Shown: positions 2,138-22,751, counted from the first letter of the stretch. The stretch is 24,000 nucleotides of DNA from Candidatus Aquidulcis sp. (GCA_020723345.1 DYJA01000022.1:29308-53307), one strand, 5' to 3'. Numbers and translations: made by a program. Notes: generated by a model from the letters alone, not told the origin.

Positions 2138-5100
2138 TCATTTCACATTCTCCAACGCGTACTCAATCGCTTGCTCGCGCGACATGGTTCGTCCTTCCGC
2201 TTGTGCCGCGCTAAAAGTTGCTTCATCCAATTGCGCGCGCGCGATGGCGAAATAGTATTCGCGCTCGGCGGCATCGGCGGGCGTGTAGACACCCTCCCCG
2301 CGCGTTCCAAGCGCATCCACCGCGCCAAACAATCGCGCGGCGCGCGCGAATTGTTTTTCGGCAGTCGCGATAAACGCGAATCCTTCCAGAGCGCCAATAA
2401 TGATGGGGGCACGCGCGGCTTGGCGCGCGAGCGCGAGACTTTCCGTCAACAATTTGCGCGCGCGCGTCACATCGCCGAGCCGCAACACGGTTACGCCGAG
2501 GTTGCCCAGCACAATTGCATTTCCGAGCAACGTGCCCAAGTCCTGTGCAATCGCGAGCGCTTCCTCGTAATATATTTTTGCGCGCGGATAATCCTGTTCC
2601 ACGCGCGCGATTTCGCCCAGGGTAAGCAACGCATTGCTGGCAAGGAGGCGATCCTTGCGCGCGCGAAAAAACTGCAATGCTTCTTCGTTTTGCCGACGCG
2701 CGGTTGCGTAATCGCCGTCGCGAAAATGGACGCGCGCGATGTCGCGATACAACACCATTGCCCAGCGTTGGTCGCCCAATTTGCTGAACGCGGCGTGGCT
2801 CGCTTCAAACGCGGCGCGCGCGGCTTGGCGATTACCTTCGTTCAAAAAGCGATGCCCCCGATAATGCAGAATCGTCGCGCTCATCCATTCATCGCCCAGC
2901 ACTTGCGCGATTGCCCAACTTTCATCTTCGAGAGCTTGCGAGCGTTCAGGTTGCTCTGTCCGGATGACCAAACTCAATTCTGCCAAACCCATCGCGAGTT
3001 GGCGTTGACCGGGCGCGCCGCACGCGCGCGCGATCTCAATCGTTTCTTCCAGATAGGGACGCGCCGCTTTGCCCGATTCGACATTCTCCGCCAACGCCGC
3101 GAGCGTGAATAACGCGCGCGCGCGCGCCAATGTTTTTTCTGCGGCTTCCGGTCGCGCCAAAAGTTTCTGAATCCGCGCGTACGCCTCGCTCGAATACGCC
3201 CGCAAATCCCAGAACAAGCGCAATGCGCCGACGATCTGCAGTCCTTTTTGCGCGCGACCTGGACTCTGCGACCAATCCAGCGCGGCGCGCAAATTATCGT
3301 GTTCGACATCAAGCCGATCCAACCATTCGAATTGTTCCGCGCCCATCAACCTAGGTTCGACGTTTTCCGCAAACGCGACAAAAAAATCGAGATGCCGATC
3401 GCGAATCGTTTCCACTTCGCCCGATTCCAACAAACGATCCCGCGCGTACTGCCGAATCGTCTCCATCAGCCGATAGCGCGTTTCCGCATCGTGCGGTTCG
3501 ACGATCACGAGCGACTTGTCCACCAATCGCGCAAGCAAGTCAAGCACATCGTCCGCGCAAACGGGATCGCAACCGCACACGGCTTGCGCGGCATCGAGCG
3601 TCCATCCGCCCGCGAACACGGACAGGCGGCGTAACAACACGCGCTCTTCTTCGGTCAACAGACTAAAACTCCAATCAATCAGCGCGCGCAATGTTTGCTG
3701 ACGCGGCAGCGCGGTGCGACTGCCACCCGTGAGCAAACGAAAACGGTCGTCCAACCGCGCCGCGATCTGTTCGACGCTCAGCGTTTTCACGCGCACCGCC
3801 GCGAGTTCGAGCGCGAGCGGAATCCCGTCCAGCCGGTGACAGATTTGCGCGACCGCCGTCGCGTTCGCATTCGTCACCGCGAAATTGGACTGGACCGCGA
3901 GCGCGCGATCAATGAACAGACGCACGGCTTCGTACTGCGATAGACTTGCCAAGTCTTGGAGACTTTGCAAGTCTGCGGGCGGCAACGCGAGCGACGGGAC
4001 GCGATACGCCGTTTCGCCGACGATGCCCAACGCTTCGCGGCTGCTTGCGAGAATTTTCAACTGGGGACACGCGCGCAAAAGCGCGTCGGCAAGTTGCGCG
4101 CACGCGTCAATCAAGTGTTCGCAGTTGTCGAGGATGAGCAACAGGTCTTTCGCGCGAAGATAATTTGTGAGGACGGTCGTGATTGGCGTGTTCGGTTGTT
4201 CTTCCAATTTGAACACAGCGGCGATTGTCTGAGGTACGAGCATGGGATCGCTGAGCGCGGCGAGTTCAACCCACCACACGCCATTCTTGAATTGATTCGC
4301 ATTCGCGAGTTCCGTCGCCAGTTGAATCGCGAGCCGCGTCTTGCCCGCGCCGCCCGCGCCCGTCAACGTGAGCAAGCGCGTCTTCCCAACGAGTTCCTTC
4401 AGTTCCCTCAGTTCCCTTGCTCTTCCGATGAAACTCGTCAGCGGCGCGGGCACATTCGTGAACAGCGCCTCGCGCGCTTTGCCGCCCGTCAACGCGGCTT
4501 CGATCTGATCGCGCAGCGCGAGCGTCTCTTTGGATGGCTCGACGCCCAGTTCGTCGCGCAGTTTCTTTTCGCACGCGTCGTACTGCTTCAGCGCGCCGAT
4601 GCGGTCACCGGTTGCCGCGAGGCAAAAGATGATGTGCTGGTACGCTTTCTCGTTCGCGGGATCGCTCGCCAACGCTTTCCGCGCGAATTCAACCGCGCGC
4701 GCGTACTCGCTTTTCGCGCGATGGTGTTGCGCGAGTCGCAAGAGCGCGTCGAGATACAGCGCGCGCAAGCGTTCGCGTTCGGGGAGAATCCAATCGTCGT
4801 AGAAGTCGGAGAGCAAGTCATCATGATAATCTTCGATTTTCGATTTCAGATTTTCGATTTCCAAATCGACAATCGGCAATCGCAAATCGAAAATCTGGCG
4901 CGCGTCGACCCAAAGGGGAAAATCAGGATTGAGTTGTACGGTCTCGCGATCTGCGATGACCACATCGTCGCCAAGTTCTTTGCGGATGGCGGCAAGCGCG
5001 GTGCGGAGCGAGTGACGCGCCTGCTCGTCGGGGACATCGCCCCAGAGGAGCGCGGCAAGTTTTTCGCGAGGATGCGCTTCGGGGAAAAGCGCGAGGTAAG

Positions 5101-5349: not shown

Positions 5350-7122
5350 ATGCCAATTCACATTTTGCCCGACGACCTCGCCTCGAAAATCGCGGCGGGC
5401 GAAGTGATCGAACGCCCCGCGTCGGTCGTCAAAGAGTTGCTCGAAAATTCGATTGATGCGGGCGCGCGCGAAATCAAGATCGAAATTCGCGGCGGCGGTC
5501 AGCGCTTGATCCGCGTCGCGGACGACGGCGGCGGCATTCCCACAGCCGAGGTCGCGACCGCGTTCGCGCGTCACGCGACGAGCAAACTCAATTCGGTGGA
5601 CGACTTGTTCAAGCTCCAGACGCTCGGTTTTCGCGGTGAAGCGCTGCCGTCGATTGCGGCGGTCTCGCGCGTCACACTCATCACCCGCGCGCGCGGCGAA
5701 GCATCGGGGACGCAGATGCGCGTCGACGGCGGCAAGATCGTCGAACAGCGCGCGCAAGGCGCGCCACAAGGTACGATTGTCACCGTCGAAGATTTGTTTC
5801 GCCACGTGCCCGCGCGCTTGAAATTCCTCAAGACTCCGGCAACCGAAGCCGGACGCATCGCCGATCTGATCAACGCGTACGCGCTTGCGTATCCCGCGCT
5901 GCGGTTCTCACTCGTGAATGACGATCGCTTGCTGTTTCAATCGCCCGGCACCGGGAAAATGTTCGACGTATTGGTGAAGGTGTTTGGGATCGAAATCGCG
6001 AATCAGATGTTGGAGGTTGGAAATTGGAAATTGGAAAATACGGCGGAAGGCGCGTCCAGTGTTCAACCTCTAACTTTTAACCTCCAACCTCCAACCTCCA
6101 ACATCCAGGTTTCCGGTTTCATTTCTCCGCCCGCCGTCAATCGCTCGTCGCGCAAATACATGCTCTTTTTCGTCAACCATCGCTGGGTGCAAGATCGCAC
6201 GTTGCAGCACGCGGTCATCGAAGCGTACCACACCGCGCTGATGGTCGGACGCGCGCCGATTGTCGCGCTCGACATCGCGCTGCCGCCGGACACGGTGGAC
6301 GTGAACGTGCATCCGACAAAAAGCGAAGTGCGTTTCCGCGACACGAGCGCGGTTTTTCGCGCGGTGCAGCACACCGCCCGCGCCGCGCTCACCGCGCACG
6401 CGCCGATTCCGACGATCAGCGCTTCCGCGCCCCCTTCGACTATCGCTCAGGGCGCGCCGCGCCGCGCCGAAACCCAACTCGCGATTGACTTGCACCGCCC
6501 AATTCCAACTTCCAATCTCCAATCTCCTGATCGCCCGATTGCCCAATTGCCCATGTTGCGCGTCCTCGGTCAAATCCTTTCGACGTACATCATTGCCGAA
6601 GGACCCGACGGCTTGTATTTGATCGATCAACATTCGGCGCACGAGCGCGTGCTGTACGAGCAATTGATGGCGGAGCGCGCCAGCGCGCAAGTCGTCGCGC
6701 AAGAATTGATCGATCCGCTCGCGCTGCAACTCACGCCCGCGCAGCAAGCCGCGCTCGAAACGCATCGCGACGCGCTCGCGTCGGTCGGCTTCAAGTTCGA
6801 GGATTTCGGCGCGCAGACGATTTTGCTGCGCGCGGTACCGGCGGTGATGAAAAAGAGCGATCCGCGCGACGCGCTCGCGCACATTCTCGACGAGTTGGAA
6901 CAAGGCGAAACGCCGCTCGAAAAATCGGCAGAAGCGCGTTTGATTTCGAGCGTATGCAAAAGCATCGCGGTGAAAGGCGGACAAGTGCTATCGCTCGAAG
7001 AAATGCGCGAACTCGTGCGGCGCTTGGAGCAGACGACCGCGCCGCGGACTTGTCCGCACGGCAGACCGACGATGATTCAATTGAACATCGGACAATTGGA
7101 AAGAGAGTTCGGCAGAAAGTAA
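5350..7122 (+). CDS. mutL: DNA mismatch repair protein MutL
   Basis: MPIHILPDDLASKIAAGEVIERPASVVKELLENSIDAGA (GHKL ATPase N-terminus), DDGGGI, GFRGEAL, VNHRWV, VDVNVHPTKSEVRF. The C-terminal dimerisation/endonuclease region has LYLIDQHSAHERVLYE and CPHGRP. The ORF-track start 5164 is an upstream extension without homology. Confidence 0.93.
   Translation: MPIHILPDDLASKIAAGEVIERPASVVKELLENSIDAGAREIKIEIRGGGQRLIRVADDGGGIPTAEVATAFARHATSKLNSVDDLFKLQTLGFRGEALPSIAAVSRVTLITRARGEASGTQMRVDGGKIVEQRAQGAPQGTIVTVEDLFRHVPARLKFLKTPATEAGRIADLINAYALAYPALRFSLVNDDRLLFQSPGTGKMFDVLVKVFGIEIANQMLEVGNWKLENTAEGASSVQPLTFNLQPPTSNIQVSGFISPPAVNRSSRKYMLFFVNHRWVQDRTLQHAVIEAYHTALMVGRAPIVALDIALPPDTVDVNVHPTKSEVRFRDTSAVFRAVQHTARAALTAHAPIPTISASAPPSTIAQGAPRRAETQLAIDLHRPIPTSNLQSPDRPIAQLPMLRVLGQILSTYIIAEGPDGLYLIDQHSAHERVLYEQLMAERASAQVVAQELIDPLALQLTPAQQAALETHRDALASVGFKFEDFGAQTILLRAVPAVMKKSDPRDALAHILDELEQGETPLEKSAEARLISSVCKSIAVKGGQVLSLEEMRELVRRLEQTTAPRTCPHGRPTMIQLNIGQLEREFGRK
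6006..6106. repeat. ~100-bp heptamer-built palindrome inside mutL
   Basis: Left arm gttggag gttggaa attggaa attggaa. Right arm aacctct aactttt aacctcc aacctcc aacctcc aacatcc. There is a perfect 16-bp basal stem, 6006-6021 / 6090-6105, with further imperfect pairing inward. It encodes GNWKLENTAEGASSVQPLTFNLQPPTSNIQ. Confidence 0.9.
6500..6555. repeat. heptamer array (8 units) in the MutL inter-domain linker
   Basis: caattcc aacttcc aatctcc aatctcc tgatcgc ccgattg cccaatt gcccatg. It encodes PIPTSNLQSPDRPIAQLPM. Confidence 0.8.
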
Positions 7123-7123
7123 T

Positions 7124-7151
7124 CCAATTTAGGATTTGCGATTTAGGATTG
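7124..7151. repeat. heptamer array directly after the mutL stop
   Basis: ccaattt aggattt gcgattt aggattg. It starts 2 nt after TAA 7120-7122. Confidence 0.75.
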
Positions 7152-10101: not shown

Positions 10102-10812
10102 TCAAATCTTCCCTTTCAAAATTCCATACAACCACGTCGGCTCGCCGGTAACGCGCGTGACGTAATACCATACCAGCGCGAACGCTTCACGCGCGGTGTA
10201 CTGCGCGCGCAGATTCGCGCGCGCGTACGTCGGACTGTCGCTCGCGCCGGAGCCATACGCTTCGATTCCCACGTCGCGCGCGATGATTTCGGCGCGATAG
10301 AGGTGAAACGGATCACTGACGATGATCGCGCTGCGCCAGCCGCGCGCGTCCATCAACCTTTTCGCGTTCGTCAGACTCGCTTCCGTCGAATGCGATTGGT
10401 CTTCGAGCACGAGCGCGTCTGCCGGGACGCCTGCGCCAGTAGCAATGCGCCGCATCACTTCGGCTTCGCTCGGCGGATTGCCGCCGACGCCGCCGCACAA
10501 AATCAGATGCGCCGCATAACCCGCTTGGTACAACGCGATCGCGTGCTGCGTCCGCGCCAACAACGACGGCGAGGGACGCTCGTTTGCCCACACCGCCGAA
10601 CCCAGTACGATGATCGCGTCGGCGCGGCGCGCGCGGTCGATTTGCGAACGCGCGTCGACGCGCGCGTACAAGATTGCCAGCACTGCGAGAACAAGCGCAA
10701 ACGCGCCCCACGCGAGCATCACCCATTTCCGCTTACGCCTACCGTTCACTGTTGACTGTTCACCGTTCACTGTTGACCGTTCACCGTTCACGGTTGACTG
10801 TTCACCGTTCAC
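10102..10812 (-). CDS. DUF218 / YdcF-ElyC-SanA family membrane-anchored protein
   Basis: RRKRKW + TM (VMLAWGAFALVLAVLAILY), then ADAIIVLGSAV, LILCGGVG, SHSTEASL and IIVSDPFHLYRA (DUF218 pattern). The first ~25 codons of the ORF-track model (GTG 10812) are the heptamer array, so the true start may be ATG 10719. The stop is 10 nt from the next gene, so the two probably form an operon. Confidence 0.8.
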   Translation of the reverse strand: MNGEQSTVNGERSTVNGEQSTVNGRRKRKWVMLAWGAFALVLAVLAILYARVDARSQIDRARRADAIIVLGSAVWANERPSPSLLARTQHAIALYQAGYAAHLILCGGVGGNPPSEAEVMRRIATGAGVPADALVLEDQSHSTEASLTNAKRLMDARGWRSAIIVSDPFHLYRAEIIARDVGIEAYGSGASDSPTYARANLRAQYTAREAFALVWYYVTRVTGEPTWLYGILKGKI

Positions 10813-10849
10813 CGTTCACGGTTGACTGTTCACCGTTCACGGTTCACTG
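10738..10849. repeat. 16-unit direct heptamer array (TTCACCG / TTGACTG variants)
   Basis: cctaccg ttcactg ttgactg ttcaccg ttcactg ttgaccg ttcaccg ttcacgg ttgactg ttcaccg ttcaccg ttcacgg ttgactg ttcaccg ttcacgg ttcactg. All units have one orientation, with no spacers. On the minus strand it reads MNGEQSTVNGERSTVNGEQSTVNG. Confidence 0.92.
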
Positions 10850-11046: not shown

Positions 11047-12588
<1,542 letters not shown>

Positions 12589-12782
12589 TCAATTGGGCAA
12601 CCAGGCAATCAGTGATCAGAGACTGATTGACTAGACTTTATCGGCAATAATTTTGGACACTGATAAACACAGATGCACACAGATTGAAAACCTAGAGATC
12701 AGTGTTAATCTGTGTCCAAATTCTAGATTGGGTTTATTTCCGATAATGTCTACTGATTGACCAATTGCCTGGTTGACTGATC
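12589..12782. repeat. composite palindromic element (heptamer-word arms + AT-rich structured core), MITE-like, filling the nusA-ylxR spacer
   Basis: Perfect 12-bp long-range inverted repeat CAACCAGGCAAT (12598-12609) / ATTGCCTGGTTG (12764-12775). Nested stems at 12638-12644/12740-12746, 12653-12660/12712-12719 and 12678-12685/12707-12714. Local hairpin 12606-12613/12622-12629. The core 12635-12750 is much more AT-rich than its surroundings. Confidence 0.8.
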
Positions 12783-12787
12783 GCGAG

Positions 12788-13108
12788 ATGGGCACCAAAC
12801 ATATCCCCCAACGCACCTGCATCGCTTGTCGGACGGTGCGCGGGAAAAGAGAATTGCTCCGCGTGGTGCGAACCGCGGAAAATCGTGTGGAAGCCGATCC
12901 GACCGGCAAACAAGCCGGGCGCGGCGCGTATCTCTGCCGCGCGCGTGAATGTTGGGAGACCGTGGTGAGCGCGCCCGGTCGTTTGGAAAACGCGCTCAAG
13001 TTGGAAATGCCGATCCGTCCGGAAGACCTCGCGCGCTTGCGCGAGTTTGCGGCGACACTGCCGTCGCGCGAACCAATGCTTGCAGTGCCACAAAACGAAA
13101 CACTATGA
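12788..13108 (+). CDS. ylxR: YlxR/DUF448 family RNA-binding protein
   Basis: QRTCIACRTVRGKRELLRVVRT...GRGAYLCRARECWE is the YlxR signature, and the position between nusA and infB is conserved. ATG 12788 is preferred; the in-frame start at 12773 lies in the repeat arm. Confidence 0.85.
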   Translation: MGTKHIPQRTCIACRTVRGKRELLRVVRTAENRVEADPTGKQAGRGAYLCRARECWETVVSAPGRLENALKLEMPIRPEDLARLREFAATLPSREPMLAVPQNETL

Positions 13109-13439
13109 ACGCAGTCGTTAACGGAATCGCGAATCCGCGTGGAACGCTGCGCGGAGATCGAGGAGAGTAAACCGATGAACGCTTGAGCGTGTCCATCGCG
13201 CATGCCCCGCGTTTGTGCCTCCTCTCTGCGCTTGCGATTGACCCATCAACCCGCTGGGTCGCTCGCCCTGTTCGATTCCTTCCGCGCGTTTTCCCGCGAC
13301 GATTGCCTCAACTGAATATTTTATCCAATCGCAACCCATCCTTGCGAAAGTTGACGCGCGGCATCGTCGATCCGCTTTTGAACCTGGCAAGGATGGATCC
13401 GAGCGCGCCTGGAAATGGGATTGGAAAGGAGAGTGTGCT

Positions 13440-15656
13440 ATGCCTGAGACGAAACCCGTGAGCAAGCGGGATGAATCGAAAAAAACAAAACCGAGTGAAA
13501 CCAAAACGACTGCCGCACCGGCGCACAAGCCCACGACGCCAAAGCCCGCGCATCCCGAACGCGCGGCGTCGTCTAAACCGATGCCCAAACCAGTCGCACC
13601 TTCGCCAGTGAAACCCGGCGCGCCAACCAGACCGACTCAACATCCCAGTTCGCACGGCGCGTCCGCACACAGACCGACTTCCCGTCCAGTGGCTCTCAGC
13701 GCGAAACCCGGCGCGCCGATGACACGACCAGCGGCACCGCGTCCCGGTGCACCTAGACACGGTATGCCCGTCGCCAAACCCGGCGCGGTTCCGGTGCGAC
13801 CGGCGACTCGCCCAGGTACGCCGCCGCGTCCCGCCGGGGTAGTTGCGCCCAGACCGGCGCCGGTTGCGCCGCCACCGCCGCCACCCAAGCCGCCCGTCGA
13901 ATTGCCGGACAATTTGACGGTGCGCGATCTCGCCGCCACGCTCAAAGTTGGACCGATCGACATCATCAAAAAATTGATGGCGAGCGGCATCATGGCGAAC
14001 ATCAATCAGCCGATTGATTTCGACACCGCCGCGCTCGTCGCGGGCGAACTCGGTTTTGAAGTGATCGAAAAAAAGCCGGAGATCGTCGAGCCGGAAGTTT
14101 CGACGCTGACGAGCATTCCAAAGAAACACGAGTACACGACAGCCGAACTCGCCAATCTCGTACTGCGTCCGCCGGTCGTCACCGTGATGGGACACGTCGA
14201 TCACGGCAAGACCTCGATCCTCGACGCGATCCGGCACGCCGACGTCGCGGGCGGCGAAGCCGGAGGCATCACGCAACACATCGGCGCGTACCAGATTTTG
14301 CACGATGCGAAACGCATCACCTTTCTCGATACGCCCGGGCACGAAGCGTTCACCGAAATGCGCGCGCGCGGCGCGCAAGCGACCGATATCGCGATCATCG
14401 TCATCGCGGCGGACGACGGCGTGATGCCGCAGACGCGCGAAGCGATTGATCACGCGCGCGCGGCGAAAGTACCGATCATCATCGCGCTGAACAAGATTGA
14501 CAAAGCGAACGCGAACCCCGAACGCGTCAAGCAGCAACTTTCGGACATGGGGCTGGCGGTGTACGGTGGCTCGGATGAAGTGACCGTCGTCCCGATGTCG
14601 GCGAAGCAAAAAATCGGCGTGGACGATCTGCTGGAAAATATTCTGCTCGTCTCGGAACTTGCCGATCTGCGCGCGAATCCGAAAAAGCCGGCGCGCGGCA
14701 TCGTCATCGAATCGAAACTCGACAAACAGCAAGGTCCAATGGCAACGCTGCTCGTGCAAGACGGTATGCTCCACGTCGGCGAGTTTGTTTTGATCGGCGG
14801 CGTGTGGGGCAAAATCCGCGCGATGTTCAACGATCACGGCGTCGCGGTCAAAGACGCGGGTCCCGCAGATCCGGTCGCGGTGACTGGTCTGTCCGACGTG
14901 CCGCCCGCGGGAGAAAAATTCGTCGTGCTGGAAGAGGAACGCGACGCGCGCAATCGCGCGGAAGCGCGCGCGCTGGCGAAACGCCAAGCGGAACAAAAAT
15001 CGACGCGCGCGGTTTCGCTCAACGATTTGTTCGCGCAATTCCAAGCCGGCAACGTCAAAGAACTCAATCTCATCGTCAAAGCCGACGTGCAAGGTTCGTT
15101 GGAACCGATTGTTTCGTCGCTCGAGAAACTGGGCTATGAAAAAATCAAAGTCAAGATCATCCATCAAGGCATCGGCACGATCACGCGGTCGGACGTGATG
15201 CTCGCGATGGCGTCACAAGGTATCGTGATCGGTTTTAGCGTCGGCGTCGAAACGGCGGCGGAATCGCTCGCCGAGAGCGAAGGGATTGACATTCGGCAGT
15301 ATAATATCATTTATAAATTGATCGAGGATATCGACAAGGCGCTCAAAGGGATGCTGGAGCCGGTGTTCGAAGATCGGCTGATCGGGCGCGGTCAAGTGCT
15401 GCAACTCTTCCGCGTGAAAAAGAGCGTCGTGGCGGGCTTGCGGATCACGCAGGGCAAAGCGGTCCGCAGCGGCACCGTGCGCGTGATGCGCGGCGCGAAC
15501 GAAGTGTTCAAGGGCACGATTGCCGCGCTCAAGCGTTTCCAGGACGACGTGCGCGAAGTCGCGGAAGGATACGAATGTGGCTTGTCGCTGGAGAAATTCA
15601 CCGATTTTCACGACGGCGATCAAGTCGAGTTTTATCAGAAAGTGAAAGTGAGTTGA
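13440..15656 (+). CDS. infB: translation initiation factor IF-2
   Basis: SD GGAAAGGAGAG before ATG 13440. Pro/Ala-rich N-terminus. GTPase motifs [22 protein letters not shown] and NKIDK. C-terminal domains follow to the stop at 15656. Confidence 0.97.
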
Positions 15657-16031: not shown

Positions 16032-17006
16032 ATGGGAACGACACTCACATTCGAGCAAGCCGTCGAACTGTTTCGACGCCACAATCAAATTTTCGTCGCG
16101 GCGCACATCATGCCGGACGGTGACTGCATCGGCTCCGCGCTCGGCTTGACGTGGGCGCTGCGAAAAATCGGCAAGACGGTGACGGTGACGTGTCCCGATC
16201 ACGTTTCGAACACGTTCAAGTTTTTGCCGGGCTTTGAAGAGCTCGCGCCCAAGACGCCGACCGGCGAAGAGTTCCTGGTTTTCGTGGACGGCAGCTCGGC
16301 GGATCGCTTTGGCGCGGCGTACGATCCGGCGAAATTCAACGGCAGACCGGTGCTCGTCATCGATCATCACGTCACCAACGATAATTTCGCGCCGCTCAAT
16401 TTCGTGGATCGGCGCGTCGCGTCCACCGCCGAAATCATTTTTCGTTTCGTCAACGCGTTCGGCGTATCGTTCGACCGCAACCTCGCGCAGTGTTTGCTGA
16501 CCGGCATCGTCACCGACACGCTCGGCTTTCGCACCGCGAACACGACGGTCGACACGCTCAAGACCGTGACCGCGTTGATGGAAGCGGGCGGCTCGATTCC
16601 CGAAATCATCGAACATTCCTTCAACCAAGTTCCGCTGGCGAGTTTGCGATTGCGCGGCAAGATTTTCAGCAGCGCGATGCTCGACGGCGTGATTCTGTGG
16701 GCGGAGGTGCCGTTCAAGTTGCAGCGCGAACTGGGGTTGAACGGCAACGGCACCGGCGGCATCATCAATCAATTGCTCAGCGTCGAGGACGCGAAGATCG
16801 CCGCGCTGTTCACCGAAAAAGAAAACGGCAAAATCGACATTGGCTTGCGTTCGCGCGTCGGCTACGATGTCGCGGCAATCGCCGCGCGGCTCGGCGGCGG
16901 CGGACACAAACAGGCGTCGGGCGCGTTGCTGGACGGACCGCTGGCGGCGGCGCGGGAACGCGTGCTTGCCGAGATCAAAAAGGCGATCAGTCAATCGGGC
17001 AACTAG
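16032..17006 (+). CDS. nrnA: DHH/DHHA1 phosphoesterase (NrnA-like oligoribonuclease / pAp phosphatase)
   Basis: HIMPDGDCIGSALGL, LVIDHHVTN, GIVTDTLGF and GGGGHKQASGA motifs. The last 7 codons (ISQSGN*) are supplied by the downstream repeat element. Confidence 0.88.
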   Translation: MGTTLTFEQAVELFRRHNQIFVAAHIMPDGDCIGSALGLTWALRKIGKTVTVTCPDHVSNTFKFLPGFEELAPKTPTGEEFLVFVDGSSADRFGAAYDPAKFNGRPVLVIDHHVTNDNFAPLNFVDRRVASTAEIIFRFVNAFGVSFDRNLAQCLLTGIVTDTLGFRTANTTVDTLKTVTALMEAGGSIPEIIEHSFNQVPLASLRLRGKIFSSAMLDGVILWAEVPFKLQRELGLNGNGTGGIINQLLSVEDAKIAALFTEKENGKIDIGLRSRVGYDVAAIAARLGGGGHKQASGALLDGPLAAARERVLAEIKKAISQSGN

Positions 17007-17066
17007 GCAATCAGTCAATCAGGCGATCAGGCGACCGATTGCCCGATTGACTGATTGACCAATCAC
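16983..17066. repeat. heptamer-word palindromic element spanning the nrnA stop and the truB upstream region
   Basis: Perfect 15-bp inverted repeat CAGTCAATCGGGCAA (16988-17002) / TTGCCCGATTGACTG (17039-17053), extendable by about 4 bp. The text is built of GATTGAC / CAATCAG / GGCGATC words with 7-nt phasing. Confidence 0.88.
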
Positions 17067-17151
17067 CATGTCCCAATGTTCCATCTGCGGCGCGCCGCAC
17101 GCGTGCCCCTTTCAACTTACGCCGCCACTTGCGCCTGCCCCGCCGCGCGGA

Positions 17152-20074: not shown

Positions 20075-20561
20075 AATCAATCTGCGCTACAAATTAACCG
20101 AAGACGAATTGCTGAGTATGACTCGCATGTCCGTGATGCGCGCGTGGTATCTGCGCCTCACGTTCATTCTTGCGCTCGTCGTCTTTCTCGGCGGCGGTGT
20201 GGCGGTGCTGTTGGGAATCGAGGGAATCGAACCGTTCATTCTTGCATCGGGCGCAATCGTGCTCTACTTTTCGTTGCTCTATTACAACCCGCTCACGCGT
20301 TGGCGCGTTCATCGCGAGCCAAAATATTTTGTCGAGCACGCGTGGCGTTTTGACGAAGATGGCGTCAGCAGCAAAACCGAATTTGCCGAATCGAAAAACG
20401 TATGGAGCGCGTACCCCAAAGTGAAAGAGAACGCGCGATTCTTTATGCTCTACGTCGACGCGAATCGATTCGCGCCGATTCCCAAACGCGCCTTTACTAA
20501 CCGCGAGCAAGCCGATCATTTTCGGGAATTGCTCAAGCGCAAGATCGCGCGCTGGGAGTAG
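20064..20561 (+). CDS. YcxB-like membrane protein (two TM helices + C-terminal domain)
   Basis: ATG 20064 overlaps the ribF end by 11 nt. Two hydrophobic helices (LRLTFILALVVFLGGGVAVLL; FILASGAIVLYFSLLYY), then a FFMLYVDANRFAPIPKRAF pattern typical of the YcxB family (by eye). Confidence 0.65.
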   Translation: MPSEINLRYKLTEDELLSMTRMSVMRAWYLRLTFILALVVFLGGGVAVLLGIEGIEPFILASGAIVLYFSLLYYNPLTRWRVHREPKYFVEHAWRFDEDGVSSKTEFAESKNVWSAYPKVKENARFFMLYVDANRFAPIPKRAFTNREQADHFRELLKRKIARWE

Positions 20562-20606
20562 GGGCGAAGCACACTTGCCCTGGCGGGACGCAAGTGTGCT
20601 TCGCCC
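20562..20606 (+). terminator. strong hairpin immediately after the YcxB-like gene (terminator candidate, weak U-tract)
   Basis: Perfect 17-bp stem GGGCGAAGCACACTTGC (20562-20578) / GCAAGTGTGCTTCGCCC (20590-20606), 11-nt loop, followed by TTCACTT. Confidence 0.55.
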
Positions 20607-20616
20607 TTCACTTGAG

Positions 20617-20656
20617 TAGACGGACGCCGCGAATTGCCGTATAATATTCGCGGCGT
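20617..20656 (+). promoter_or_regulatory. archease-rtcB promoter with its -10 box inside an 11-bp inverted repeat
   Basis: TAGACG (20617-20622), 17 nt, TATAAT (20640-20645). Inverted repeat ACGCCGCGAAT (20624-20634) / ATTCGCGGCGT (20646-20656) brackets the -10. No SD precedes ATG 20664. Confidence 0.5.
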
Positions 20657-20663
20657 TAAATTT

Positions 20664-21077
20664 ATGGCGATAAAACGCTTTGAGGAAATTCCGCATACCG
20701 CCGATTGGTCGTTCCGCGCGTTCGGCGAAGATTTGCGCGCGTTGTTCGAGAACGCCGCGCACGCGCTCTTTGCGTTGCAAGGGGCGCGCGCGCGCGAACA
20801 CGCGCCTGAAATCGCGCGCGTCGTCGCGGTCAGCGCAATCGATTACGAAGCGCTCCTCGTCAACTGGCTGACCGAATTGTTGTGGCTGCAAGAATCGCAG
20901 CGCGAGACGTACGCGCGCTTTCACATCGAAGCACTCTCGCCGACAGGATTGCGCGCGCAAGTTTTCGGCGCGCCGCTCGCGCATCTCGACAAGATCATCA
21001 AAGCAGTGACGTATCACAATTTGGAAATCAAACAAACGGCGGAGGGATGGCAGGCAACCATTGTTGTAGATGTGTGA
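20664..21077 (+). CDS. archease (RtcB activator/chaperone)
   Basis: 137 aa. FEEIPHTADWSFRAFG at the N-terminus and IKAVTYHNLEI near the C-terminus are archease signatures. It lies directly upstream of rtcB. Confidence 0.9.
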   Translation: MAIKRFEEIPHTADWSFRAFGEDLRALFENAAHALFALQGARAREHAPEIARVVAVSAIDYEALLVNWLTELLWLQESQRETYARFHIEALSPTGLRAQVFGAPLAHLDKIIKAVTYHNLEIKQTAEGWQATIVVDV

Positions 21078-21080
21078 GTC

Positions 21081-21147
21081 GAGTATTCAGTGTTCAGTAT
21101 TCAGTGTTCGGTATCCAGTGTTCAACAACCCGGACACTGAATACTGG
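21081..21147. repeat. heptamer array + inverted arm hairpin between archease and rtcB
   Basis: gagtatt cagtgtt cagtatt cagtgtt cggtatc cagtgtt ... The 13-bp perfect stem CAGTATTCAGTGT (21095-21107) / ACACTGAATACTG (21134-21146) is extendable to about 17 bp. The rtcB SD GGAGG (21146-21150) touches the 3' arm. Confidence 0.88.
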
Positions 21148-21155
21148 AGGTTGCG

Positions 21156-22687: not shown

Positions 22688-22751
22688 TTATGCAGAAAAA
22701 ATTCCGCATAACTACCCCAGCGGGGTCTTATGCGGAATCGTTTCCGCATAA
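22688..22751. promoter_or_regulatory. two tandem 8-N8-8 palindromes (TTATGCRG-N8-CCGCATAA), operator- or attenuator-like
   Basis: Half-sites TTATGCAG 22688-22695, CCGCATAA 22704-22711, TTATGCGG 22728-22735 and CCGCATAA 22744-22751. The centres are 40 bp apart. The middle pair extends to an 11-bp inverted repeat (ATTCCGCATAA / TTATGCGGAAT) enclosing a CCCCAGCGGGG mini-hairpin. Confidence 0.6.

Follow-up and report, generated by a model that had tools for sequence, protein, structure and literature searches.

Several described systems bear comparison with the locus analysed here. Bacterial MITEs, of which the 113-bp MITEAba12 of Acinetobacter with its 9-bp target duplications is an example, are short non-coding elements bounded by terminal inverted repeats (TIRs) (definitions, bioRxiv 10.1101/2024.01.18.576219; precedents for definitions and effects, PMC10969869 and bioRxiv 10.1101/2024.01.18.576219). 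The Correia/NEMIS elements of Neisseria are TIR-bounded, ∼100–155 nt long, often placed inside operons and co-transcribed, and RNase III cleaves the dsRNA that their paired ends form (PMC10969869). IS1397 and ISKpn1 insert into REP/BIME palindromes, i.e. a mobile element comes to lie within a resident intergenic palindrome, near its loop. Tandem repeats of short words are known as the STRR heptamer repeats of cyanobacteria, and heptamer satellites, (GATAGRA)n, have been recorded for Chloroflexus, a Chloroflexi genome (PMC6749651). Our literature search for MITEs in Chloroflexota or Anaerolineae found none. The search for word or heptamer repeats in Chloroflexi returned the Chloroflexus satellites only, and hairpins that fill stop-to-start junctions were not found described.

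We analysed a stretch of 24,000 nt (hereafter, the window), in which the spacer between nusA and ylxR holds an AT-rich palindromic core. With a probability of roughly 0.7, we read this core as a MITE-like insertion within a hairpin that was already resident at the junction. The core resembles bacterial MITEs in its size (∼115–121 nt), in being non-coding, AT-rich relative to the host, intergenic and hairpin-forming, and also in its 19-nt imperfect TIRs, the 9-bp flanking repeat at the window site and its presence in at least two copies at unrelated loci. Unlike them, its sequence resembles none of the described families that could be searched, and its second copy is without a 9-bp duplication. 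The Correia elements are likewise unrelated in sequence; their target duplication is TA, and they have IHF sites and promoters. IS1397 and ISKpn1 differ in being complete insertion sequences, shown to be specific for REP loops, whereas here one copy of two lies in a palindrome. The arms around the core, as well as many intergenic tracts of the window, consist of tandem 7–8-nt words as in STRR repeats; however, unlike STRR repeats and the Chloroflexus satellites, the window arrays are paired with their own reverse complements and fill stop-to-start junctions, and they also occur in frame in mutL. Coordinates of all these features are collected in Table 1.

Table 1. Features of the nusA–ylxR junction and related sequences, named as they are interpreted in the text. 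Positions are those of the window unless a locus is given.
Feature	Position	Strand	Details
nusA	11047–12588	+	GTG start, 513 aa, TAG stop 12586–12588; Pfam NusA_N, S1, KH_5
Resident word hairpin, 5′ part	12586–12631	+	5′ arm TAGTCAAT TGGGCAAC CAGGCAAT CAGT, loop GATCAGAG, first 10 nt of the 3′ arm
12-bp inverted repeat	12598–12609/12764–12775		CAACCAGGCAAT/ATTGCCTGGTTG, perfect
Left copy of 9-bp direct repeat	12623–12631		CTGATTGAC; end of the resident 5′ part
Putative inserted MITE-like element	12632–12752	.	121 nt, 35% GC; TIRs 89%, inner stem 87% in the repeat search
TIRs of the element	12632–12650/12734–12752		TAGACTTTATCGGCAATAA/TTATTTCCGATAATGTCTA, 19 nt, 17/19 complementary; end sequence TAGACWTTATCGGNAATAA
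Inner stem	12638–12644/12740–12746		TTATCGG/CCGATAA
Nested stem	12652–12674/12698–12720		23 nt; internal CACAGAT-type words
Inner stem	12653–12660/12712–12719		TTGGACAC/GTGTCCAA
Inner stem	12678–12685/12707–12714		CACAGATT/AATCTGTG
Promoter-like hexamers	12684–12689 and 12706–12711	+	TTGAAA, 16 nt, TAATCT
Outward GATAAT of the right TIR	12742–12747		5 nt from the right element end
Right copy of 9-bp direct repeat	12753–12761	+	CTGATTGAC; putative target-site duplication
Rest of resident 3′ arm and pre-start gap	12762–12787	+	arm CAATTGCCTGGTTGACTG, then 8 nt ATCGCGAG, then the ylxR start
ylxR (DUF448)	12788–13108	+	ATG 12788, 106 aa; Pfam YlxR 3e-22
infB	13440–15656		
Second junction hairpin, same word family	16983–17060	+	between nrnA (stop 17004–17006) and truB (ATG 17068); −35.1 kcal/mol, z −8.9
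Word arrays, examples	542–615, 4832–4895, 6006–6105, 6499–6553, 7127–7150, 10741–10847, 16976–17060, 21082–21140		
Second copy	L014:10953–11067 (IMGVR_UViG_3300037224_000114)	window(−) = L014(+)	115 nt, 34% GC in a 52% GC locus

The operon in the window reads nusA, ylxR, infB, rbfA, nrnA, truB, membrane dipeptidase, ribF, archease and rtcB, as assigned by Pfam and by gene calls on identical Logan contigs. The NusA product is identical to that of the gene called on one such contig (L002) and the ylxR gene is identical on another (L001). The homologues of NusA are named Anaerolineales, Anaerolineae or Chloroflexi bacterium, and the N-terminus of YlxR, MGTKHIPQRTC, is kept in the relatives. The gap of 331 nt between ylxR and infB (13109–13439) holds only a 92-aa ORF (13183–13461) without a Pfam match, and its fold is not significant (z −1.7). 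We recognised no L7Ae-type ylxQ in this gap.

The nusA–ylxR spacer is 199 nt long (12589–12787), and all of it folds into one long nested hairpin, of which the TAG stop codon of nusA is the first triplet. The RNA MFE of the region 12585–12792 was −71.2 kcal/mol, compared with −46.5 ± 3.8 kcal/mol for 200 dinucleotide shuffles (z −6.5), none of which folded as well; the structure is far beyond chance. The minus strand of the same region gave an equal value (−69.7 kcal/mol, z −6.8), and a G–U strand-bias test detected no excess of G–U pairs, either in the window or among the relatives. As both strands fold equally and G–U pairs are not in excess, the symmetry of the spacer is of the Watson–Crick, DNA-level kind, which neither supports nor excludes a role as RNA. 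The original prediction had described a nested-hairpin element of ∼195 bp in this spacer, and its components were all found in place. The repeat search recovered the perfect 12-bp inverted repeat, which is part of a 27-nt pair with 74% complementarity (12587–12613/12752–12778). The core is indeed AT-rich, with 35% GC (12632–12751/2) against 58% in the window and 49% in the arms. The three inner stems that had been proposed are present, and two of them are partly mutually exclusive, as had been suggested, since both use 12712–12714.

We compared the junction with that of nine relatives having NusA 77–88% identical to that of the window, eight of which were read as DNA. These junctions came from six JGI metagenome loci (L008–L013), an NCBI Anaerolineales MAG (L015), two JGI contigs (L016, L017) and P0004, the last by gene coordinates only. 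The view that nusA and ylxR are normally almost contiguous did not hold for this lineage: the two genes are 63, 70, 79, 83 or 87 nt apart in the relatives, as against 199 nt in the window, and in all eight relatives with DNA the spacer itself is a hairpin composed of tandem 7–9-nt words and their reverse complements. This hairpin starts at most 5 nt from the first base of the nusA stop codon, and its 3′ end lies 1–16 nt before the ylxR ATG. Five of these spacers were tested by folding and gave z values of −3.2 to −7.5. The words themselves vary, being of the TGAGCCAA, TAGTTGAT or GCCAAACGA type. The length of 87 nt is shared by L008, L009, L011, L012 and L013 (L009 and L011 being near-identical) despite unrelated words; L013 is alike to L008 and L012 at 31 of 93 positions, which is the level of chance. 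Repeated words made the nine spacers impossible to align, and the covariation check (MAFFT and RNAalifold) predicted no pairs, so that we folded each sequence separately and counted antidiagonals (axes) in place of an alignment. Three of the 87-nt spacers (L008, L012 and L013) have a common hairpin axis, i + j = 90, on which the T of the stop codon faces the A of the ATG. Neither the window nor any of the eight relatives read as DNA has, in this spacer, a Shine–Dalgarno sequence at a usable distance from ylxR; nusA (AGAAGAGG) and rtcB (GGAGG) have one.

The AT-rich core was present in none of the nine relatives' spacers. The orthologous site is thus occupied in the window and free of the core in 9/9 relatives, whose words differ, none of them offering an exactly matching empty-site sequence. 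Because relatives without the core carry an equivalent hairpin, the outer arms, including the 12-bp repeat, are not transposon ends. On this comparison of sequences, we take them to be the resident, lineage-conserved spacer hairpin. The MITE-like architecture that had been proposed therefore stands with respect to the presence of an element but not with respect to its ends: the arms with the 12-bp repeat belong to the resident hairpin, while the element is the core, 12632–12752, with TIRs of its own.

Tandem 7–8-nt word arrays are found throughout the window, and are often followed by their own reverse complements. The array of the nrnA–truB junction (16983–17015) contains a 27-mer 93% identical to the 5′ arm at nusA–ylxR, which shows that the arms are made of words used across the genome and do not mark the ends of a single element. 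REP/BIME sequences are short imperfect palindromes, repeated often in intergenic DNA, that have a conserved head and an associated RAYT transposase. In a comparison with them, word hairpins recur at several junctions of the window, with no common unit of fixed sequence, and the words vary between relatives. The nrnA–truB junction (16983–17067) has a 55-nt word hairpin that extends from 2 nt past the start of the nrnA stop codon to 8 nt before the truB ATG, and is composed of CAATCAG/GGCAA words like the nusA–ylxR arms.

Other word arrays and hairpins of the window were recorded alongside. Inside mutL (5164/5350–7122, plus strand) two arrays, at 6006–6105 and 6499–6553, are in frame; one of them holds a 23–30-nt inverted repeat (GATGTTGGAGGTTGGAAATTGGA ... 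TCCAACCTCCAACCTCCAACATC). The mutL arrays encode a variable surface loop (∼aa 283–314) and the linker before MutL_C, and the same positions are variable in L015 and L016. In the archease–rtcB spacer (21078–21155), an (AGTATTC/AGTGTTC)n array has its complement, ACACTGAATACTGGAGG, on the 3′ side, and this complement pairs across the Shine–Dalgarno sequence GGAGG of rtcB (z −4.2). About 15 tandem heptamers of the ACCGTTC/ACTGTTG type, with no inverted partner, lie at 10741–10847, in the divergent region between a DUF218 gene (minus strand) and nusA (plus strand). The ycxB–archease spacer (20559–20666) is not word-based; it has a near-perfect hairpin of ∼22 bp starting from the stop codon (GGGGCGAAGCACACTTGC.../...GCAAGTGTGCTTCGCCCT), next to which is a second hairpin with TATAAT in its loop (z −7.0). 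At 22688–22751, two copies of a 24-nt palindrome (TTATGCrGAA-N4-TTCCGCATAA), 40 nt apart, surround a small GC hairpin; a TATAAT precedes them and the next gene follows, and they have the look of an operator pair.

The core has several of the features by which MITEs are recognised: it is short (within 50–800 bp) and non-coding, its TIRs exceed 10–15 bp, and it is present or absent at orthologous sites. The longest reading frame through its 121 nt is 39–41 codons, and the 40-aa translation had no relative among 5.8 billion proteins. On its own, the core folds with −35 kcal/mol (z −5). The perfect CTGATTGAC repeat abuts both ends of the element without a gap. A 10-nt version of it, ACTGATTGAC, is 100% identical at 12622–12631 and 12752–12761; since the right TIR itself ends with the A at 12752, 9 bp is the conservative count. 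When the element and one copy of the repeat are removed, there remains a 69-nt spacer, in which 12586–12631 joined to 12762–12779 forms a clean 64-nt hairpin that starts from the stop codon (−33.8 kcal/mol, z −5.8), and the junction reads ...GATCAGAGACTGATTGAC/CAATTGCC.... This reconstructed empty site is alike in kind to the spacers of the relatives. The insertion point falls in the first 9 bp of the 3′ arm, immediately past the apical loop GATCAGAG.

Next to this evidence from a single locus stands a second member of the family. We searched 2.9 million IMG/VR contigs with a degenerate pattern of the ends, TAGACWTTATCGGMAATAA, and obtained a single match, L014. Both ends are there, in inverted orientation and 77 nt apart, and because the partner end has the right distance and orientation the match cannot be due to chance. 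Compared with the ends in the window, those of L014 are identical at 19/19 and 18/19 positions, and the A/T difference between the two ends at position 6 is the same in both copies. Overall identity is 87/121, and the interior of L014 is likewise made of CAGATT-type words and their complements. Conserved ends with a drifting interior are the pattern expected of ends bound by a transposase, not of an RNA helix. A 9-bp flanking repeat is missing from the L014 copy, which is flanked by TA only, or by TAATA if the element is delimited as GAC...GTC. From these flanks, TA may be considered as an alternative target duplication.

The L014 copy (region L014:10842–11340) is located between tRNA-Gly(GCC) and tRNA-Cys(GCA) genes, where a phage-like region with replication genes borders on it (DnaB, AAA_24, PD-(D/E)XK, M78 peptidase), and is followed by a (GATTGAC)7 heptamer array at the end of the locus. 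Because of this (GATTGAC)n array, the host of L014 is probably another organism that bears word arrays.

The L014 copy also bears on the possibility that the whole 199-nt spacer grew in place, i.e. that the process which makes and homogenises word arrays and palindromes throughout this genome (slippage together with template switching across the hairpin) expanded the resident apex with no transposition. The genome is indeed full of locally generated word arrays and hairpins, the interior of the core itself consists of CACAGAT-type words and complements, and the flanking 'duplication' is a common word of this genome. The 10-nt version, ACTGATTGAC, occurs again at 17050, and a 9-bp direct repeat is less improbable in word-rich DNA than in random sequence. 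However, growth in place cannot explain why the same 19-nt ends, asymmetry included, enclose an AT-rich palindrome of similar size on an unrelated contig. The core, at 35% GC, is also sharply unlike the arms (49%) and the other arrays, and its excision at the repeat restores a perfect hairpin. We therefore regard growth in place as improbable, and the MITE-like insertion as the better account of the core.

We then know of two family members in total. No further copy was found by blastn-short of the core combined with a fuzzy TIR search (≤3 mismatches) over all fetched loci (∼180 kb), and ∼100 kb of relatives' loci had none. Four more IMG/VR scans, with a central 20-mer of the core, with the outer ends gapped, with the inner ends gapped and for a longer size class, returned L014 again or nothing, and the core had no blastn match in phage and plasmid collections. 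The 20-mer TTATCGGCAATAATTTTGGA of the core gave five matches, in unrelated phyla, in the GTDB representative set, a set in which the source genome is not included. The longest of these agrees exactly with the left end of the element over 25 nt (GACTTTATCGGCAATAATTTTGGAC) and is found at L003:4707–4731, in the Planctomycetaceae MAG CAWBCP010000001.1; it lies in an apparent coding sequence and has no partner end. We judged it to be a chance match, though long for that. Apart from the two MITE copies, these ends were not found in the IMG/VR scans or in the fetched loci, and neither source gave a parent insertion sequence or a transposase bearing them.

In SRR13164373, assembled independently by Logan, NusA and YlxR are identical to those of the window and the same insertion is present, but the assembly is broken inside the spacer. 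The first contig stops at 12659 and the second begins at 12727, which is 28 and 26 nt, respectively, inside the ends of the element. Assembly on a de Bruijn graph with k = 31 runs at most 30 nt into a repeat before the graph branches. The other end of the nusA contig breaks likewise in a heptamer array, starting at 10811 within the 10741–10847 array. Judged from their positions, these breaks are as expected of an element present in several copies; they could also be due to heterogeneity among strains or to low coverage.

We also weighed whether the core could function as a structured RNA. It might be an sRNA gene, a module for processing or stability, or a pause or attenuator that responds to NusA, and its 'TIRs' would then be a conserved closing helix acquired or selected at the junction. 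Its nested fold is very stable, both copies keep the same closing helix including the mismatch at position 6, it is located inside the nusA operon, and its long helices could be substrates of RNase III, as described for Correia elements (PMC10969869). However, Rfam gave no match at the gathering threshold over the whole window, and even at E ≤ 10 the best hits over 12450–12900 were of 15–16 bits to snoRNA and miRNA families, i.e. noise. The two strands fold equally and without G–U bias, as expected of symmetry at the DNA level. As the core is absent from all the relatives, it does not represent a regulatory RNA conserved in this operon, and the other copy sits in an unrelated context between tRNA genes. 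The ends of the helix are conserved in sequence without compensatory changes while the interior drifts, opposite to the pattern of an RNA. The scan of 12300–13100 found neither a promoter nor a plus-strand terminator-like site. We think it unlikely that the core owes its presence to a function as RNA.

The original prediction had further suggested an internal promoter. Some MITEs, e.g. Correia elements, carry promoters (reviewed in PMC10969869), and a promoter in the core, either TTGAAA-16-TAATCT or the outward GATAAT of the right TIR, could drive ylxR–infB independently of nusA. The hexamers exist as described, but the promoter reading gained no support: TAATCT agrees with the −10 consensus TATAAT at 3/6 positions, GATAAT has no acceptable −35 at 16–18 nt, and the scanner detected no sigma-70-like site in 12300–13100. 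The relatives express ylxR–infB without this sequence, and we consider an independent promoter very improbable. A terminator, also proposed, can be set aside, as the scanner found no plus-strand site in 12300–13100, the stems are followed by AAATTCTAG or ATCGCGAG, where an intrinsic terminator would have a U-tract directly behind a GC-rich stem, and the essential infB lies downstream. The scan gave a single terminator-like site, which overlies the nusA stop codon on the minus strand.

The reading of the core as a MITE-like insertion in a resident junction hairpin builds on what was observed at the locus and beyond it, namely the anatomy of the core, its absence from the relatives, the hairpin restored on excision and the second family member in another genome. 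We propose that in this Anaerolineales lineage the nusA–ylxR spacer is always a word hairpin reaching from the stop codon to near the ATG, one case of the word arrays and hairpins found genome-wide at gene junctions. Into the first 9 bp of its 3′ arm, a 121-nt AT-rich non-coding element would have transposed, thereby duplicating CTGATTGAC. The element would be a non-autonomous transposon (MITE), moved by a putative transposase, and is likely to be co-transcribed with nusA–ylxR–infB. Since it is palindromic and apical, the hairpin was lengthened (from −33 to −71 kcal/mol) with the stem base, at which the stop codon lies opposite the start codon, left intact. This apical palindrome is probably the reason why an insertion is tolerated inside an operon with the essential infB.

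As judged from the sequence of the junction, translational coupling of ylxR to nusA would be the simplest functional reading of the resident hairpin, which may also, or instead, serve mRNA processing or stability. A ribosome terminating at the nusA stop codon would melt the base of the stem, and the ylxR start codon, which lies in the facing strand, would thereby become free. An insertion at the apex would leave such a mechanism intact. The effect of the element is most likely neutral or mild, either an additional masking of the ylxR start, which has no Shine–Dalgarno sequence, or a long dsRNA that RNase III could cleave. The composite RNA offers a near-perfect duplex of >19 bp, and by analogy with Correia elements it could be a processing site of RNase III. 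Correia elements are the best functional analogy for a possible effect of the composite hairpin on the nusA–ylxR mRNA.

More tentatively, the junction hairpins may be a device in their own right. In the Anaerolineales clade, the junctions nusA–ylxR, nrnA–truB and archease–rtcB would carry a rapidly evolving word hairpin with the stop codon opposite the start codon, and ylxR is without a Shine–Dalgarno sequence. These hairpins might form a device shared across the lineage and dedicated to obligatory coupling of translation or to masking of the start, kept by co-variation of whole arms, possibly through hairpin-templated repair, and onto its apex a MITE could be grafted harmlessly. This is a speculative extension, which we hold to be doubtful.

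The type of event described here is ordinary; the lineage is poorly studied. If our reading is correct, this would be the first MITE-like family described for Anaerolineales, a group known almost only from metagenomes, and it would show how an element can find a harmless seat amid an essential transcription–translation operon, by extending a hairpin that exists already. It also carries a warning for annotation, as prominent inverted repeats that flank an insertion in such genomes may be the junction hairpins of the host itself. The junction hairpins may be more useful than the insert: their position and length are conserved whereas their sequence is not, they lie upstream of a gene without a Shine–Dalgarno sequence, and they would provide a testable hypothesis on translational coupling in Chloroflexota.
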